Source: a virus (Duplodnaviria > Caudoviricetes). Taken from it: a stretch of 59,178 nt of DNA. Positions 1 to 47,192 of this stretch are shown here, piece after piece. The notes beneath the pieces are model-generated. The model made no database searches, was not told the origin of the DNA, and worked only from the letters and a program-made list of their open reading frames with translations. The stretch is taken from positions 1 through 59,178 of the IMG/VR virus record IMGVR_UViG_3300012940_001187; one strand, written 5' to 3'. How positions within the stretch are numbered: position 1 is the stretch's first letter; each line of letters begins with the position of its first letter. A program made the position numbers and the translations under genes.

Positions 1-1520
1 CTGACCGGTCCGCCCTTCTTCGGCTTGTCGATCGATTCCCAGTCGCCGGGTTTCGGAAACTCGCCCGTCTCTTTCGCTCGAGCGACCCATGCCGAGCACG
101 GCACCCACTTGGGATTCCAGCGGTAGTACTTCGTTTTTCCCTGGTCATCCCGCGCCGGCTCGCCCGAGACGTAGACGCGGCGCGGAGATCCCCACCGGCG
201 CTTGAGGAACGTCTGATCCTGCATGGCGGAATACGGGATGATGACCGGTTTCGGCGCCGGGATCGGATCGGGTTTGGTGCCGACTCCGGTCTGATGCATC
301 TTCAGAATGGCGCGAATCGCCGCCTGGCGCTGATTGACCATCTGCCGCACCGGCGGGAACGGGCACTCCTTTGGACCAAATTCCCAATGCTCCATATCGG
401 TGATCACGCCGACGGCCGGATTGAGCGGATACGAGTCCCACGGGACCTCGTCTTGATCGAAGATGTAGGCCATCAGCGCGATGTAGGCATTCCACTGGCG
501 CGCCTGTTCCTCCGGTCCCCACGGGTTGTTCTTGTTTCCACCGTCCGACAGCTCGATGGCGCGGAGATCACGGTTGACGGCGTTGATTCCCAATGCCTGA
601 ATGAACGCGATGCCGTCGCCGTCGAGGTCGTTCGCCGGACCGCTCGCCCATGGCGCGATGTCGAGCCCCTTCGGCACCCACTGGTAGATCCTTCCGTCGA
701 GGCTGCCATCCCACGTTCCGCCAATGCCGAAATCGGTCAGCGATCTACCCGCCGCCTCCCCCTGAAAATAGCCGTTCGTTCCGGCGAGGGTCCCGATCAT
801 TCGATGCGTGCAGGTGCCGAGATCGCGACGCACACCCAGCCAGTCGAATGCCGTATTCGGGCCGTTGCTCACGATGTCATGTAGTTCCAAGTCTTCGGGC
901 AGCGGGACACGGCCGAAGACGAGCTTGGTCGTCGGTGTAGACACGGAACCTCCTCCTGCTCCGCTCGAGGGAACAGTGAACTCTCCAAACATTTCGAAGG
1001 CGCGGTCGGCGATTTTGATGTGGCCCTCGGGATCGGTCCACCATTTGCCGGTCATGTCGGCCAACGTGTTGACGGTGCCGGCTAAGCCCTTATCGATGAC
1101 GATCTGGTAGCGAGGGTCGAGATGAATGTGCGGAAAGAGCGGGTTGTTTTCCGCGATCGGGCCATGGATATACACATATTTGTGGACAAGATCCGCGAGC
1201 GCCGCGTCGCGACCGTTTTCGAACGCGAGCATGTCATCCTTCGAGTCGGTCACGCCCAGTCCATCGAGCACCCCGCGCGTTCGATAAATCTTCGACTGCC
1301 AGGGTTTGCCGGTCTTCGGGTCTCCGCACTCGTGGCGGGAATGAACCGCATTGAGATCGGCGTTGATCTGCACTTTGGGTCCGAACTCGTACCAGGTTTC
1401 GAGCGCGTCGGAAAGAAAATCGAGCCGTGCCGCCCCGTTGGCTTTCGCCCAGGCGAGCACCGTTTCCGCGTCACTAATCTGTGGTGAATCCCAACGCGAG
1501 TTGACGGTGTAGCGGGTCAT
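1..1520 (-). CDS. Endolysin, probable zinc N-acetylmuramoyl-L-alanine amidase (partial, runs off left edge; absent from ORF track)
   Basis: Manual translation from ATG at 1520 (MTRYTVNSRW...) is open to the edge; amidase_2-like ligands THRM and EHWEFGPKECP; next to holin. Confidence 0.75.
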   Translation of the reverse strand, partial: MTRYTVNSRWDSPQISDAETVLAWAKANGAARLDFLSDALETWYEFGPKVQINADLNAVHSRHECGDPKTGKPWQSKIYRTRGVLDGLGVTDSKDDMLAFENGRDAALADLVHKYVYIHGPIAENNPLFPHIHLDPRYQIVIDKGLAGTVNTLADMTGKWWTDPEGHIKIADRAFEMFGEFTVPSSGAGGGSVSTPTTKLVFGRVPLPEDLELHDIVSNGPNTAFDWLGVRRDLGTCTHRMIGTLAGTNGYFQGEAAGRSLTDFGIGGTWDGSLDGRIYQWVPKGLDIAPWASGPANDLDGDGIAFIQALGINAVNRDLRAIELSDGGNKNNPWGPEEQARQWNAYIALMAYIFDQDEVPWDSYPLNPAVGVITDMEHWEFGPKECPFPPVRQMVNQRQAAIRAILKMHQTGVGTKPDPIPAPKPVIIPYSAMQDQTFLKRRWGSPRRVYVSGEPARDDQGKTKYYRWNPKWVPCSAWVARAKETGEFPKPGDWESIDKPKKGGPV

Positions 1521-2181: not shown

Positions 2182-2955
2182 ATGAGGATAGAGACGATGG
2201 AAACCACTGAGACCTGCAACTACCTTCGCCAGCAGTACGAGCTTGAAAAAACGCTCGAAGACGCGCGGCGCGCGGCCGATCAATTGGAGCGCGATCGTCG
2301 AGCTACTGCCGCCATGAAGGCAAACATGTGGCTCAGCGTTACGCGGTTGCAGGAACGCCTCGATGCGCTGCGCCCCCTGGTCGATGCGGAAGCGGAGGCG
2401 TACTACGCGGAACTGGCGGCGATGAGTGACAACGAGCGCGAAGCGCAAGAGACCGAATCGTTCATCGCGAGCCTCGATCAATACACGAACATTCGCGACC
2501 TGGTGGTCCTCATGTCGGCAATTGACGAGGATGTCCGAGATGGTCGAATGCTCGCCGATGATGCACGGATTGCTGCAACACAGGCGGCAATCAAGCGCCT
2601 CACTGTTACGCAGGATGCCGCCATCACCGAGGATGGGTCCGCAGCAGTCGAAACGGCCGAGCGCATCCTTTCCGCGGCTCGCACGATTCAGCGCCGCCAA
2701 GTCCTTGCCGAGCGATTCGTCAGAGTATGGGTCTATGACGATCCGGACTATCCCAACGTCTGGGATGGAGAGCTGATGACGATGGCCGCAGCGTCACTGG
2801 CGATTGCTGAACGGAGCGCCAATCAGCCTCCAAGGATCACCCGGACCTACGAGGGCTACTGGTCCTTCTGCTGGCGCTTTGGTCAACGCATCGTCGTCAA
2901 GGGTGCGACCGCTGATGAGCTCCGCGATGCCTATCGCGCCGCGAACGCCGCTTAG
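2182..2955 (+). CDS. Hypothetical coiled-coil protein (moron operon gene 1)
   Basis: 257 aa ORF behind strong promoter, opposite to structural genes. Confidence 0.7.
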   Translation: MRIETMETTETCNYLRQQYELEKTLEDARRAADQLERDRRATAAMKANMWLSVTRLQERLDALRPLVDAEAEAYYAELAAMSDNEREAQETESFIASLDQYTNIRDLVVLMSAIDEDVRDGRMLADDARIAATQAAIKRLTVTQDAAITEDGSAAVETAERILSAARTIQRRQVLAERFVRVWVYDDPDYPNVWDGELMTMAAASLAIAERSANQPPRITRTYEGYWSFCWRFGQRIVVKGATADELRDAYRAANAA

Positions 2956-2983
2956 TCAGGGTTACACAGAAAGGATCGACAAC

Positions 2984-3421
2984 ATGGATCGTCTCGCCCA
3001 AACCTCCATCGCCCACGTTAGCATCCGTTCCCGCAATCGCGATCGCCAAACCGAGATTGTGATCGCGAACTATCCGGCCCTCATGGAGCGCTCCCACCGC
3101 CTTTGCGTGTACGTCGCGCTGCCGGTGACGCTGGACACGCCGGCTCCGGAGATGACACTCGCGTCATATCACGTACACGGAAGCGACGGATTGAGCGTGG
3201 TCGGTTACGACGCCGATGCTCGGCTTTCGGGCCACGCTCTCGAGACCTGGCTCGCTGCCATAGCCGACGACGTGCGCGCACTGGTGAGAGGCGACACTCC
3301 CACCGATCGCGCCGAGGCGGAGGCGCCGTTCGTTGCCCTCGATGTCAGCCCCGATGCACCGATCGAGGATGTGCTCTCCTATATCAGAAAGTACGCTGGC
3401 CTCAAGGCAATCAGGGCATGA
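2984..3421 (+). CDS. Hypothetical protein (moron operon gene 2)
   Basis: ATG at 2984 preceded by AAAGGA SD. Confidence 0.65.
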   Translation: MDRLAQTSIAHVSIRSRNRDRQTEIVIANYPALMERSHRLCVYVALPVTLDTPAPEMTLASYHVHGSDGLSVVGYDADARLSGHALETWLAAIADDVRALVRGDTPTDRAEAEAPFVALDVSPDAPIEDVLSYIRKYAGLKAIRA

Positions 3422-42901: not shown

Positions 42902-43139
42902 TGACCGCCTCCGTCTCGATCGTTCGAGGAGCAGATGGAATGGCCCGGCATTTCACCCGGCCGGTCTTTTTGTAGAGCTTGAAGAGCCAACCGGGCAGCT
43001 TGCTCGAGTGCCAGCGACCGCAAAACTCGCAGGGGTAGACCGTCTCGCCGTCACGGGTATTGATGATGGCCGTCCATGCATTGGGATATGACGCCTGGCC
43101 GTCGTGCGACGACCGGCGCCGTGCTCGCTTCCGGCTCAT
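42894..43139 (-). CDS. Small zinc-finger protein
   Basis: YPCEFCGRWH. Confidence 0.6.
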   Translation of the reverse strand: MSRKRARRRSSHDGQASYPNAWTAIINTRDGETVYPCEFCGRWHSSKLPGWLFKLYKKTGRVKCRAIPSAPRTIETEAVNG

Positions 43140-44086
43140 ACCGCTGCCTTTTCTCCAAGCAATCCGGCAAAAAGCGGGAGCGGAGCCAGTCGTTGACGGC
43201 GACGCTCGAGCGCCTTCTCACTGTTGCGAATAGCTTGCTGGTAGTAACTCTCTTTGAGCTCGAAGCCGACGGCGTTTCGCCCTTGCTCAATGGCAACGAA
43301 CGCCGTACTCCCGATACCCATAAAAGGGTCAAGGACCGTGCCTCCGGGATTCGAATAGAGCTGGATCAATCGCCGGATGACCGTCAACTGAAGCGGGCAA
43401 ACGTGCTTTTCGTCGTCCTCTTCCCGCGCCGATTTGAATCCGTCAAGGATGTCGATCTCGTGGATGTCGTCCCACACACCGGACCAGGTGCCGTGTGCAT
43501 CCCTGATCCAGTCTTCCGCCGTGATCCAACCGTCTGGGTTGCGATCGCGGTCGTAGAGCGCGGGTACCGGCGTGCCACCTTCGCCGGGCTTTCGAAACAA
43601 CATCACGTAGTCGTTAATGGCCGGGGCCAATACCCGCGCGTCAGTGCGGGCCATCCTGAACTGCAGGGAATGAAGCTTCTGAGTCTGCGCGATGCGCTGT
43701 GGGTCTTTTGGAATCACGAACTCGCCGGTCCAGTCGAAGCCTCCGGCGCAGAAGAGATCGACGGTTGCTCCCCGGAAGTCGCGGCGGCCCATAAATCCGT
43801 GTTGCACCTTGGTGGCGCGAAGCTGCTGAATGTGGATGGCGGCGACGGCTCCCGGCTCGAGTACACGCAGCAGCTGCTCGATCATGAACCGGGTGTGAAT
43901 GGCGAACTCCGTCTCCCGCAGATCAACCCCAGCTGCGCAGTTACCGATGTCCTCGTTTTTGGCGCTGTACTGAAACAGATCGGCAAATGGGATCGAGGTC
44001 ACGCAGAGGTTGATCGAATCCGCCGGCAACTCCGCCATGCCCGGCACGCAATCGCCAAAACGGATGTCATAGGTCGGTTCAGTCAT
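43136..44086 (-). CDS. Beta-class N4-C/N6-A DNA methyltransferase
   Basis: GDC, TSIPF (motif IV), HVCPLQ, VLDPFMGIGST (motif I), ELKESY. Confidence 0.92.
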   Translation of the reverse strand: MTEPTYDIRFGDCVPGMAELPADSINLCVTSIPFADLFQYSAKNEDIGNCAAGVDLRETEFAIHTRFMIEQLLRVLEPGAVAAIHIQQLRATKVQHGFMGRRDFRGATVDLFCAGGFDWTGEFVIPKDPQRIAQTQKLHSLQFRMARTDARVLAPAINDYVMLFRKPGEGGTPVPALYDRDRNPDGWITAEDWIRDAHGTWSGVWDDIHEIDILDGFKSAREEDDEKHVCPLQLTVIRRLIQLYSNPGGTVLDPFMGIGSTAFVAIEQGRNAVGFELKESYYQQAIRNSEKALERRRQRLAPLPLFAGLLGEKAAV

Positions 44087-44366
44087 GGTCTTCGTCCTCG
44101 TCTCTGAGTTGCCAAACCTCACTGTTTCGCGGATTGCCTCGGACCAGCTCCACGTTGGCGCCGATCGTCCAGACTTCCCCGCACTCCATGCACTTGATGG
44201 CGTAGATGCCGATGCCGTCGAGGTGGAGATGCGCACCGCACTCGCAGTACACGTCCATGCAGATGTCGGTGCCCTTGAGTTGCATCCACCCGTACGCAGG
44301 GCCATCGTGGATTGCCTTCTGTAGTGGGCTTAGGTCCCCATCGTGGATGTAGGGTCGTTCAGTCAT
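44079..44366 (-). CDS. Zinc-ribbon hypothetical protein
   Basis: CECG...CMECG; overlaps both neighbours. Confidence 0.7.
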   Translation of the reverse strand: MTERPYIHDGDLSPLQKAIHDGPAYGWMQLKGTDICMDVYCECGAHLHLDGIGIYAIKCMECGEVWTIGANVELVRGNPRNSEVWQLRDEDEDHD

Positions 44367-45563
44367 GCCGCTTCACCCTCCCCCGCGAAATCGATCGAGC
44401 AGAGTACGGAACGCCATTGCCGCCACCACCGGCACCACTCCGTTCCCAAGGGTTCGAAGGCGGTCCACCCGAAAGGCAGTCCCATCAGCGTCTCGACGAA
44501 GGACGGGGCTAAAACGTGGGTCGATAGTGATGAGCTCTTCCCATTGATCGCGCTCTCCTGGACGCGGGGGCCAGAGTGGTCGAGCGCTTGCGCCGACAGA
44601 TGCGGCCCATGGGTCGAGTTGAGATGGCTCGGTGCCCGATTGGTCGTGCGGTTCTCCGCCGGCGACGCCCGCGGCGTCGCCCATGATCCCGACCGTACCG
44701 CCTGGTCGGTCAGCGTCGGTCCCGACCGGTCCCGTTGATTCCCGGTCATGCGCGAATCCATGGCGAGTGGGGTCGCCCAGTTCTGTGAAGTCCCTTTGAG
44801 CGTCGGATTCCCGCGCGCATAGGTCGCGCTCGCCCGATCTCCATCCGCTGCCGTCGGTGTTGGCCACCGTTCGGCAAGTGCCGCCAAAGCCGGTCGATAT
44901 TCGGCATTCGGCGACGGACTCCGATTGATCCGCGTCGTCACCCCCCGCATCGGGCGTAGGCCAGTTCGCCGCTGAACTCGGAAGCGTCCGGTCTCCCGGC
45001 CGACGTGGATTCGATTGCTTCGGGCCATCCATTGCGGTTGGAGCGGGCCAGGAGGAAGAGCCGTTCGCGACGGTGCGGCGCACCCGCTTCTTCTGCTGAA
45101 AACAGATCCCATTCCGTGTCGAACCCCATTTCGGAAAGATCGGCGAGGACAGCGGCAAGTCCATGCCGGGCAAGGTCGGGTACGTTCTCCACGAACACGT
45201 AGCTCGGTCCCACTTCGCGAATGATTTCCGCGATGTCGGGCCAAATCCATCGCTCGTCGGCAAGACCGCGTCGTTTGCCGGCGAGACTGAACGGCTGACA
45301 CGGGAAGCCCGCAGAGACGATATCCACGAGTCCACGCCACGCTGTGCCATCGAAGGATTCGATACTGTCCCAGATAGGAGCTCGATCCAGGGTCGCGTCT
45401 TCCATCCGCGCCACGAGGACGGCCGCAGCGAATGCTTCGCGCTCGACGTAGAGGCGACACTGATACGCGTCTCCGAGGGCCAGCTTGAGACCGAGCTCGA
45501 GCCCGCCGATGCCAGCGCAGAGGGCGAGTCCACTGAGAGTCCCGGGACGTATAACCAGGTCAT
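44363..45563 (-). pseudogene. Alternative-frame methyltransferase beta chain (WPTP repeats, motif IX), interrupted at the same site
   Basis: Start MTWLY at 45563; WxTP repeats continue across the G run into the frame carrying FVETLMGLPFGWT. Confidence 0.7.
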
Positions 45564-45567
45564 TCAC
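44373..45567 (-). pseudogene. C5-cytosine DNA methyltransferase alpha chain, interrupted by +1 G at 44941-44946
   Basis: CAGIGG, GFPCQ, ENV, HRRER in 44938-45567; motif X (LGNGVVP) in another frame ending 44373. Confidence 0.8.
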
Positions 45568-47192
45568 GCCGCCCTCCGGAGCTCGCCGCTCTCAATGAAT
45601 GACAGGCGGTATTCCTCTTCCTGGGCAGCAACGTCGCCTAGGAACCGAGCTTCCTTCTGGCGGATGTTGTCGAACATCGCGCCTTCGAGTTCGGGGATGT
45701 ACGGCCAATAGACGTGCACCGGCTCGGTCTGGCCATAGCGATAGGCGCGTCGGATCGCCTGATAGCTCCGCTCGAAGGAATCGTCGAAGCCGCTGAAGAT
45801 CATGGCGCGGACGAATTGCAGGTTGAGGCCGTAGCCGATGAGTTGCGGCTTGCTGATCAGCACGCGCGTTTCGCCGGCTTTGAATCGCCGGAGGAGATCG
45901 AGCCGCTTCGCCTCCGGCTGCTTGCCGTCGAGCGCGGCGATCTGGTCGCCTTCCCACCGTATGCCGTATTGCCGCATCGCCTCAAGCAGGATCGGCGCCT
46001 CCTCGTCAAACGTCGTCCAGATCAATACCTGCCGCTCCTGGGTCAGCTCATCGGCAACGATCTCTGCGATTCGGCGCGGCTTGCGGCTGTCATAGCGCTC
46101 GACGATCTTGCCCTTTTCGCGATAGAGAAAGCCGCGGGCGAGCTGGGCGAGCTTCGTACGGGGAACAATGCCGAGCTTGCCACCGAACATGTCGGCGCCG
46201 TACTCGACCTGAATCGCCTGCATGCGCCGGCGCTGGTCGTCGGTCGGCTCGATCCGCTCTTCGTGGATGACCGGATCAGGCAACCCGGCCAGAATGTTCC
46301 GAAAGCCGAATCTCGCCGGGTCATGCATGTAGAGCGACCACGAGGCGAGGAAGCGGTAAAATGCCCGTCGCGCGTGTGGCTTGATCACCCAATCGCCGCT
46401 CTTCGTCTTGCTGTAGTACGTCCAGAGCACGTCGCCCTCGGAGCGCATCGTTTCGAGAAATGCGGCCTGCGAGGCGTATTCCATCGCGTCGTTCGGGGCC
46501 GGGGTCGCGGTGTTCGACAGCTTGTATTCGATGCCCTCGGCCGAGTGGATGACGTTCCATTTGATGCGTCCGCCGCCGGTCTTCAGGATCGAACTCTCAT
46601 CGAGGACCAGCCCGGCGAGGTGGCGGAGATCCTTGATTTCGCCGCGGATGAACTTCTCGTAGTTCGTGATGGCGATCGGCTCATCCCCGCGACCGTTGCA
46701 CCACGCGATCAGCTCGTCACGGCTCTCGATGTGTCGCATGTTCGCGAGGTAGGAATCTGCCCCGTAGAAGTCGCCGGCCATCTCGATCGTCTGCGGGATC
46801 ACCGCCGGCGGGGTCACGATCAGCACCCGGCCGGCCGTCATTGCATGCACCTGATTGCCGTACTCGAGCAGCACCGGCGTCTTGCCCAATCCGGTGTTGA
46901 GCCAGGCGGCAAAGCGCTTGGCCTTCAGCGCCAGCCCGACCGCGAACTGCTGGTAGTCGTAGAGGTGCGGGGCCAGATTGCCGATGATCCGGCTCGGTGC
47001 CGGAATATCGAGGCCCAATCGCTCGGCAAACCGTGCCGCAGTGGTGACGGTGTAGACGTCTTGCCATGGGTCGTACTCGACGCTGGATTCGGGGAGCGCC
47101 TTCACTTTCAGGAAGAGTGGATAGTCTTCGAGCGGGAACGACCGGAATTGAATGCGCGCGATGTCGCCGGCAACCGCGATGTCGACCGTCAT
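45564..47192 (-). CDS. SF2/SNF2-like helicase
   Basis: TGLGKT, LDESS, TATPAPND, GLNLQ, QAIRRAYRYGQ. Confidence 0.92.
   Translation of the reverse strand: MTVDIAVAGDIARIQFRSFPLEDYPLFLKVKALPESSVEYDPWQDVYTVTTAARFAERLGLDIPAPSRIIGNLAPHLYDYQQFAVGLALKAKRFAAWLNTGLGKTPVLLEYGNQVHAMTAGRVLIVTPPAVIPQTIEMAGDFYGADSYLANMRHIESRDELIAWCNGRGDEPIAITNYEKFIRGEIKDLRHLAGLVLDESSILKTGGGRIKWNVIHSAEGIEYKLSNTATPAPNDAMEYASQAAFLETMRSEGDVLWTYYSKTKSGDWVIKPHARRAFYRFLASWSLYMHDPARFGFRNILAGLPDPVIHEERIEPTDDQRRRMQAIQVEYGADMFGGKLGIVPRTKLAQLARGFLYREKGKIVERYDSRKPRRIAEIVADELTQERQVLIWTTFDEEAPILLEAMRQYGIRWEGDQIAALDGKQPEAKRLDLLRRFKAGETRVLISKPQLIGYGLNLQFVRAMIFSGFDDSFERSYQAIRRAYRYGQTEPVHVYWPYIPELEGAMFDNIRQKEARFLGDVAAQEEEYRLSFIESGELRRAA

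Follow-up and report, generated by a model that had tools for sequence, protein, structure and literature searches.

A probable two-frame C5-cytosine methyltransferase pair of phages, broken in one metagenomic contig by a single extra G

Gene layout at the locus

The window analysed here is the complete IMG/VR virus record IMGVR_UViG_3300012940_001187, a linear, metagenome-assembled viral contig of 59,178 nucleotides (nt) with a CheckV completeness of 64. On its minus strand about 1.2 kb appear to code for the halves of a C5-cytosine methyltransferase in two overlapping reading frames, called chain 1 and chain 2 in the following. Both chains are interrupted at the same place, a run of six G (G6), where the relatives of the locus read straight on (Table 1). 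The two starts lie within one string of seven bases, into which the TGA stop of the upstream helicase-like gene (45566-45564) also falls. Because GGAGGG is found 4 and 8 nt in front of the two starts and the helicase stop is part of GTGAATG, one ribosome-binding site could serve both frames. Translational coupling could perhaps serve them too.

The open reading frame (ORF) that begins at the GTG, frame A, contains the C5 methyltransferase motifs I, IV (PCQ), VI (ENV), and VIII. Its match to PF00145 has an expectation value (E) of 7.4e-33 but is confined to profile positions 4-167 of 324, and that to TIGR00675 spans positions 4-162 of 329 with a score of 93.8, which is below the cut-off of 100.65. 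A single chain combining motif X with motifs I-VIII was not found in the window, where GNGVVP is located in frame B behind the frameshift. Motif X is on the same chain as motifs I-VIII only if the run is read as five G (G5), and in relatives such as protein P0123. Likewise, frame A does not contain the variable region and motif IX and gives no full-length profile match, the motif-IX-like segment being encoded in the other frame. A six-frame search of the record with PF00145 (E <= 10) returned the N-terminal domain alone, with a profile that could not show motifs IX and X. Frame B, which begins at the ATG, is open from 45563 to 44373 (396 residues). In the window copy it fuses the leader of chain 2 to the linker and motif X of chain 1. 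Its residues 82-229 match phrog_1008, labelled DNA methyltransferase in PHROGs, at profile positions 40-188 (E 3.3e-20), and its tail matches the methyltransferase PHROGs 363, 29583, and 32758. Frame C, which would be the functional half of chain 2, matches phrog_1008 at profile positions 60-280 of 329 (E 6e-10). The ATG at 44950-44948 could express this orphaned half, but its use is speculative.

If the run is read with one four-base step (GGGG), frame A continues into frame B to give a chain of 397 residues, and frame B continues into frame C to give a chain of 399 residues. A second GGGG near the 3' end alters only the final few residues of these translated chains. The BLASTP matches place the break at the tract in both cases. 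The chain 1 relative P0123 (397 residues) aligns to residues 1-205 of frame A with 79% identity, and its residues 180-397 align to residues 208-396 of frame B with 52% identity. The chain 2 relative P0003 aligns to residues 1-204 of frame B (51% identity) and then to frame C from residue 170, and P0004 aligns to residues 1-210 of frame B and then to frame C from residue 177. G6 thus appears to be a chimeric state that departs from the family, whose members read across the site. The first-pass annotation of this DNA had described the starts 4 nt apart at 45567 and 45563, the stop of the motif-bearing ORF right after the run, and the two chains that result from one G less, one of about 397 residues with motif X (LGNGVVP) and one of about 399 residues joining the WPTP repeats to further WxTP repeats and a motif-IX-like segment. 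All of this holds on the sequence, as does its statement that a single base shifts both chains and that G6 represents an off or chimeric state.

Table 1. Features of the two-frame locus, its neighbours in the window, and named records with both frames (coordinates of named records are their own)
Feature	Coordinates	Strand	Details
GGAGGG, putative Shine-Dalgarno-like site	45572..45577	-	4 nt before chain 1 GTG, 8 nt before chain 2 ATG
GTGAATG twin starts	45561..45567	-	chain 1 GTG 45567-45565; chain 2 ATG 45563-45561
Frame A, chain 1 N part, 209 residues	44938..45567	-	motif I GIGG 45513-45502; motif IV FPCQ 45306-45295; motif VI ENV 45189-45181; motif VIII HRRER 45075-45061; TGA 44940-44938 directly 3' of G-run
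Frame B before tract, chain 2 leader (MTWLYVPG...)	44947..45563	-	WPAP 45050-45039 and WPTP 44963-44952, the first two WxTP modules
Frame C ATG	44948..44950	-	8 nt before frame A stop; sole nearby start for the orphaned chain 2 half
G6 run	44941..44946	-	one G beyond the need of the family reading frame
Frame B after tract, chain 1 linker and C-module	44373..44940	-	WPPRP 44573-44559; motif X GNGVVP (preceded by L) 44447-44430
Frame C after tract, putative chain 2 functional half	44363..44940	-	WPTP 44866-44855; WATP 44779-44768; WATP 44683-44672; then C-terminal helix; cut off from chain 2 start in window copy
Motif-IX-like segment of frame C	44500-44462	-	FVETLMGLPFGWT
Helicase-like gene (neighbour)	45564-47192	-	PF00271, E 4.5e-12
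N6/N4-type DNA methylase (neighbour)	43136-44305	-	PF01555, E 2.7e-20
ORF of 95 residues	44079-44366	-	no family; between both methylase genes, overlapping the long open frame of the N6/N4 gene
Acinetobacter phage ABMM1, chain 1	2218..3132		304 residues; region GC 0.50
Acinetobacter phage ABMM1, chain 2	2222..3118		298 residues
Salmonella phage S9-5 (P22-like)			intact pair; chain 1 244 residues, chain 2 247 residues
Synechococcus phage Yong-M2-251			intact pair; chain 1 379 residues, chain 2 371 residues
E. coli PT62 prophage (L170, NZ_CP090448)	401-1160		intact pair; chain 1 245 residues, chain 2 251 residues

The second frame in related loci

Chain 2 belongs to proteins that have hardly been named in the databases. 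No Pfam family (E <= 1) and no NCBIfam entry was found for it, and a chain 2 profile searched against PDB sequences gave only chance matches to the MS2 coat protein (E 0.006 or weaker). The ESM Atlas contains unnamed, mostly viral clusters of 168-212 residues, one of which has been automatically named cytosine methyltransferase, and offers no structure model. The frame B protein as it stands in the window has no close relative among the viral contigs searched (seven pattern matches, none confirmed). The read-through chain 2, in which frames B and C are joined, finds 205 proteins at E <= 1e-3 among 8000 scored candidates, nearly all of them without Pfam domain and without name. The best six of these cover 96-98% of the query and are therefore contiguous across the tract. 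A chain 2 profile built from 39 sequences (alignment A3, consisting of 17 loci and 22 database proteins without the 741-residue chain 2 frame of locus L075) matched 46,688 of 1.84 billion cluster representatives at E <= 1e-3, 33,539 at E <= 1e-10, and 8,457 at E <= 1e-30. Among the 150 matches listed, most begin at residue 1 of the protein. As far as can be judged from the sequences, the enzyme with both chains is the property of a very large group of phages and prophages.

The layout of the locus was compared in 80 loci from IMG/VR (kept from 426 confirmed among 597 candidate stretches) and 80 loci from bacterial genomes (kept from 516 confirmed among 600). Both frames are open from end to end in 76 of the 80 viral loci. 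In 69 of the 80, motifs IV to X are found in one open frame, and the N-terminal motif of chain 2 through to motif IX in the +1 frame. In seven further loci (L042, L056, L065, L081, L083, L084, L085) both frames are open, but the strict motif patterns failed. Four loci deviate: chain 2 of L038 contains one stop, L082 shows a frame swap like that of the window in a record with ambiguous bases, and L060 and L067 lack an open chain 1 linker. The bacterial genomes, mostly Alphaproteobacteria such as Paracoccus, Rhodobacter capsulatus, and Sphingobium, have both frames in 78 of 80 loci. Chain 2 starts 4 nt after chain 1 in 48 of the 69 viral and 66 of the 78 bacterial loci. The other offsets in the viral loci are -5 (seven loci), -2 (six), +13 (three), and +7 (one), and the start could not be assigned in four. 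Because the two-frame layout recurs in almost all viral and bacterial loci, it is more than a product of chance. Conservation of the second frame in homologues had been set beforehand as the test of dual coding, and dual coding is strongly supported by this result.

L060 (1937-3527) and L067 (1997-3647), which are related at 83% nucleotide identity, represent a three-piece variant. Their chain 2 is intact (509 and 549 residues). Chain 1 ends after motif VIII (208 and 193 residues) and is followed by 14 and 8 stops, and the C-module with motif X resumes in the same frame as an ORF of about 90 residues that has a separate ATG, preceded by an AAGGTG-like site.

Pairs are also found in named phages and prophages (Table 1), and the second frame is open in Stenotrophomonas phage SOVA965 and Microbacterium phage R1 as well. 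A near relative of the S9-5 pair is encoded in 4 of 5426 complete E. coli genomes, which are PT62 and three others. In the named phage and prophage records the annotators have entered one frame only, or part of one. For example, RefSeq annotates only chain 1 of PT62 and leaves the intact chain 2 unannotated.

How often a second frame would stay open by chance was determined by permuting synonymous codons within each gene, keeping one chain fixed and checking the other frame for stops. With chain 1 fixed, a stop-free +1 frame has P <= 0.001 in L001, L002, L010, L014, L058, L061, L075, L080, and L084, and P 0.003 in L085. When chain 2 is the one held fixed, the chain 1 frame stays free of stops with P <= 0.01 in almost all properly delimited loci. 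In both directions P is <= 0.003 for L080, L084, and L085, and <= 0.001 for L001 and L002. Permuting the genes by halves in 19 loci gave similar results, and the single observed stop in six of these loci is the TGA within GTGAATG or ATGAATG, upstream of the chain 2 start. The permutation rows of some loci have little or no meaning because the rule for finding starts cut them to about 33-39 codons (L011, L038, L050, L052, L065, and L069 among others) or to about 115 codons (L040, L066). Chance is excluded as the reason for the open second frame.

The sequence composition points to selection on chain 2. At the fourfold degenerate sites of chain 1, the same third base is found in a fraction of 0.445, compared with 0.288 expected from the usage of each gene. 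The ratio is 1.5-1.6 in all three regions of chain 1 (132 of 153 pairs, namely those with at most 60% identity). The compared sequences were taken from 24 cluster representatives (below 70% identity to each other), 18 of which are in alignment A2. L014, L037, L041, and L049 were left out because their chain 1 start was unclear, and L040 and L052 because the start was misplaced or the locus partial. The proline of the chain 1 motif AP(V/I/L)W is encoded by CCT in all 18 loci, whereas CCT is used for only 89 of the 443 other prolines of these genes (0.20) and for 1 of 27 in the helicase gene of the window. No other proline codon gives the leucine of chain 2 that is invariant in all 39 sequences. 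In the window, the GC content at third codon positions of chain 1 is 0.67 in the N part and 0.59 in the C part, compared with 0.83 in the helicase gene and an average of 0.80 in 11 other long ORFs. The N-terminus of chain 2 has the consensus M-x-W-L-Y-x-P, in which W3 and P7 are invariant in alignment A3. The leader of chain 2 is kept open with a few anchor residues (W3, P7, and the leucine) and is loosely constrained otherwise. The pairs of Salmonella phage S9-5 and the E. coli PT62 prophage differ at 39 of 717 nt. Of the 31 changes in the first 155 codons, 21 are at third positions of chain 1. Over the final 84 codons substitutions are half as frequent, with two and five residue changes in the two chains. 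An RNA or DNA structure as the cause of the conservation was considered and dropped, as the conservation is periodic in both protein frames.

Chain architecture and comparison with known enzymes

The conservation alternates between the two chains. Chain 1 leads over motifs I-VIII and X, while its middle part is gapped and hypervariable, and chain 2 leads at the WxTP modules, of which there are one to eight per protein, and at LNPxFVExLMG. The natural in-frame fusion P0130 shows where the modules belong. Its PF00145 match reaches profile position 217 and crosses the first WPTP module, whereas the match in proteins of the chain 1 type ends near position 166. The WxTP region therefore sits where the variable region of the enzymes normally begins. 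The division into two chains follows the domains of the C5 methyltransferases. The segment LNPxFVExLMGxPxGWT is presumably motif IX, judging by its position, the predicted contacts, and the consensus of that motif.

Structures were predicted for the homologous pair of locus L061. When chain 1 was modelled alone, residues 1-180 were confident, residues 184-262 had a predicted local distance difference test score (pLDDT) of about 33, and the C-module was folded. The N-terminal domain of this model can be superposed on M.HaeIII and M.HhaI across 173 of some 325 columns (E 3e-13). Chain 2 alone gave a poor model with a mean pLDDT of 56, except for the last 45 residues, which reached 85-91. The two chains together are predicted to bind. 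The interface score ipSAE was 0.87 (0.86, 0.87, and 0.92 in the single runs), compared with 0.00 for the best of three controls. At least 50% of the contacts are common to the runs, and the pLDDT of the partners is at least 54. The ipSAE mark that the pair passed is reached by 58 of 80 solved complexes and by 2 of 110 mismatched pairs, a rough guide here because custom alignments were used. In the predicted complex the chain 2 helix 291-300 (NPDFVEWLMG) meets residues 267-268, 287-289, 310, and 319-321 (motif X) of chain 1 and residue 159 (motif VIII), and residues 1-8 and 48-77 of chain 2 touch chain 1 too.

Considering the anatomy of the two frames, their conservation, the break point, and the predicted interface, it is probable that the family encodes a two-frame methyltransferase pair, which is broken in the window by one extra G. 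Two start codons only a few bases apart behind one ribosome-binding site would open frame 0 and frame +1. Chain 1 would provide the large catalytic domain with motifs I-VIII, then a linker that is hypervariable and disordered, and finally a conserved C-module with motif X at its end. Chain 2 would consist of a weakly constrained leader and a variable WxTP array in place of the variable or target-recognition region, and would end with the motif-IX-like LNPxFVExLMGxPxGWT helix and a terminal helix. Both chains might then assemble into one complete enzyme. In this arrangement each frame would be functional where the other reads as a spacer, and about 60 codons at the 3' end would be constrained in both. 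In the window, the step from G5 to G6 would have shifted both frames, so that chain 1 stops after 209 residues, the chain 2 leader runs into the linker and motif X of chain 1, and the functional half of chain 2 is left without a start. Most likely, this allele would have originated by a replication-slippage indel and would be a null or crippled allele in the phage population. That both chains are translated, that the heterodimer is active, and that the function is lost in the window is what we infer from the sequences.

Several observations weigh against this explanation. With chain 1 fixed, many single loci with a GC content of 0.67-0.70 give only weak permutation values (P 0.1-0.3). Between S9-5 and PT62 the leader has changed in 24 of 154 residues of chain 2, compared with 6 of 155 in chain 1, so most of the leader is barely constrained. 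Since L060 and L067 do without an open linker in chain 1, a full-length chain 1 cannot be a strict requirement. The predicted complex is that of the L061 pair and not of the window's own chains, and its score may reflect the memory that the model has of single-chain C5 methyltransferase folds, in which case it would indicate likeness and not binding. Because chain 2 matches no Pfam, NCBIfam, or PDB entry, the terms motif IX and target recognition are based on position, on a motif consensus, on P0130, and on predicted contacts. Finally, both assemblies with G6 derive from the same sequencing run, and G6 could be a consensus error.

The closest precedent is M.EcoHK31I, to which the locus is likened by its gene layout. 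M.EcoHK31I is a C5 methyltransferase that needs two polypeptides, the beta chain being encoded in another frame within the alpha gene and supplying motif IX (PMC2836561, PMC3404938). As in M.EcoHK31I, an alternative frame of the chain 1 gene codes for the second chain, but here the overlap is complete and not nested. M.EcoHK31I has a small nested beta chain, and its alpha chain keeps the target-recognition domain. Here, chain 2 is as long as chain 1, starts 4 nt after it, and holds the whole variable region together with the motif-IX-like segment, whereas chain 1 bridges the variable region by a disordered linker (pLDDT about 33). A large chain that keeps target recognition and a small chain with motif IX only were therefore not found at this locus. 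The parallel with M.EcoHK31I, which had already been drawn in the first-pass annotation, is apt but incomplete, since the second chain is full length, comprises the whole variable region, and starts beside chain 1. M.AquI is a natural two-chain C5 methyltransferase split in the variable region (PMC3404938). There the second subunit contains motifs IX and X, while here motif X stays on chain 1, and PMC3404938 does not describe the M.AquI split as a full-length frame overlap. The same source reports that fragments of M.BspRI, M.BsuRI, M.HhaI, and M.SssI complement each other, so that large and small domains assemble from separate chains (PMC3404938). This makes an enzyme of two or three chains plausible, although those are laboratory fragments and not natural genes in overlapping frames. 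The multispecific C5 methyltransferases of Bacillus phages are single chains with tandem target-recognition domains. Like these, the present family would have a variable number of recognition modules, here the WxTP modules of chain 2. Rz1 of phages is a short ORF nested inside Rz. Such embedded gene pairs, which serve one function from different frames of the same DNA and of which gene callers miss one, are described in PMC11445585. Unlike Rz and Rz1, the two ORFs of 240-490 residues coincide here almost from start to stop. A full-length two-frame C5 methyltransferase of phages was not found described in the full-text literature; subscription journals, REBASE, and supplements lay outside this scope, and a prior description may exist.

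The extra G and competing explanations

Because other frame-swapped-looking copies exist (locus L082 and the proteins P0077, P0130, P0136, and P0150), the G6 is read as an ordinary slippage indel. The simplest reading, and one of the options given in the first-pass annotation, is a slippage mutation of the ordinary kind or a polymorphism. We consider it unlikely, but worth taking seriously, that G6 is instead a sequencing or assembly error and that the phage truly has G5 with two intact chains. The record is a metagenome-assembled contig, the relatives require G5, and a contig of 151 nt from another soil study (X4) is identical to the window save for one base left out at 44941, and thus has G5. 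However, X4 has a depth of 2 only, and a difference in a single contig below a depth of 5 may itself be an error. G6 is also present, at a depth of 15.4, in a separately assembled contig of the probable source run, which shows no other difference over the 1401 bases compared, although it was built from the same reads. Contigs of two further runs (X2 and X3) match only short parts of the stretch outside the tract. The whole comparison of the run is one of contigs and not of reads.

The run could also be a functional switch, either by slipped-strand phase variation or by +1 ribosomal slippage at GGG-GGG-UGA, that toggles or partly restores both chains. The G5 and G6 versions both occur in nature, a +1 step at the run yields precisely the reading of the family in both frames, and the stop of frame A is located directly behind the run. 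However, the tract comprises just six bases, and it is absent from the closest relative P0123, which reads differently there. The longest homopolymer in the 68 family loci is 4 (27 loci), 5 (32), 6 (7), or 7 (2) bases long, so that a tract conserved among the relatives and long enough to slip often, as in contingency loci, was not found in the family. As the tract is not conserved, a regulated switch, as had been considered at first, is not supported, and we regard it as quite improbable. Phasevarion genes are type III mod genes with longer tracts. In phasevarions, the length of a homopolymer tract in a methyltransferase gene sets the reading frame (PMC3711429). Unlike those, the tract here is a G6 and not conserved.

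Only a slim chance is given to the extended possibility that the family is a modular system, in which chain 2 is an exchangeable specificity subunit, single-base indels of the G5/G6 type leave the enzyme alive and re-deal the modules into a three-piece assembly, and the run could toggle or tune methylation. WxTP modules could be gained and lost freely because chain 1 reads them as a disordered linker. The three pieces would be the catalytic N part, the leader-linker chain with motif X, and the recognition chain restarted at the ATG at 44950. Such an assembly would resemble the natural form of L060 and L067.

It seems very unlikely that a single chain is produced by two programmed frameshifts, with +1 after motif VIII into the WxTP modules and motif IX and -1 to return for motif X, so that the second full-length ORF would be incidental. 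This would agree with the conservation, which alternates in the canonical order of motifs I-VIII, variable region, IX, and X, with the PF00145 match that continues from motif VIII into the first WPTP when fused in frame (P0130), with the fast-evolving leader of chain 2, and with the closed chain 1 frame between motif VIII and the C-module in L060 and L067. However, chain 2 is free of stops from a conserved start beside that of chain 1 even at a GC content of 0.50-0.58, M-x-W-L-Y-x-P is conserved at this start, and the CCT in 18 of 18 loci preserves a residue of the leader. In addition, L084 has about 100 codons between the GWT motif and motif X, and two efficient shifts in one gene are unusual.

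That the second frame is a non-coding shadow, open only from high GC and miscalled as a gene, is hardly credible. In favour of it, there are three long open frames in the window here, and some chain 2 residues are automatic from conserved chain 1 residues (e.g. W from Met-Gly or Met-Glu). Against it, the conservation of chain 2 is highest opposite the gapped, hypervariable linker of chain 1, chain 2 is open in loci with a GC content of 0.50-0.58, the synonymous sites of chain 1 are constrained, and the predicted binding passed against three controls scoring 0.00.

The third frame of the window is open at 44363-45460 (minus strand), with about 170 codons upstream of the tract, and its arginine-rich translation has no family match. 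Because this frame is open upstream of the tract too, the GC-rich stretch is permissive, and open frames alone prove little here.

If both chains of the two-frame pair are made, few conserved overlaps of same-strand genes in bacteria and phages are as long, since this one covers 0.7-1.5 kb, almost from start to stop. The pair would be a simple route to two subunits from one ribosome-binding site, and a natural test case for shared constraint in overprinted genes, each frame being functional where the other is a spacer. New in comparison with M.EcoHK31I would be the complete overlap, the twinned starts, and the whole variable region moved to chain 2. Tens of thousands of protein clusters that lack a Pfam family match the second frame, and a large set of hypothetical phage proteins would be explained. 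Annotation is systematically incomplete, with just one frame of the pair entered in RefSeq and GenBank records. The pair is testable in laboratory hosts because intact members are found in a P22-like Salmonella phage and in an E. coli prophage. The window alone is modest news, since its copy is the broken one.

Some proteins of the family deviate from the two-chain layout. P0130, P0136, P0150, P0077, and P0235 are natural chimeras, three of which fuse the N-terminal domain of chain 1 in frame to the C part of chain 2. P0077 changes frame twice, and P0235 is a single chain of 496 residues that holds both the motif-IX-like segment and motif X. These chimeras may be indel variants, errors, or ancestral forms. 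The chain 2 homologues P0084 and P0087 have an insertion of about 200 residues in the leader. No Pfam family was found for it at E <= 0.01, and it contains the motif AAGLIDGEGC, which we take to recall the LAGLIDADG homing endonucleases.

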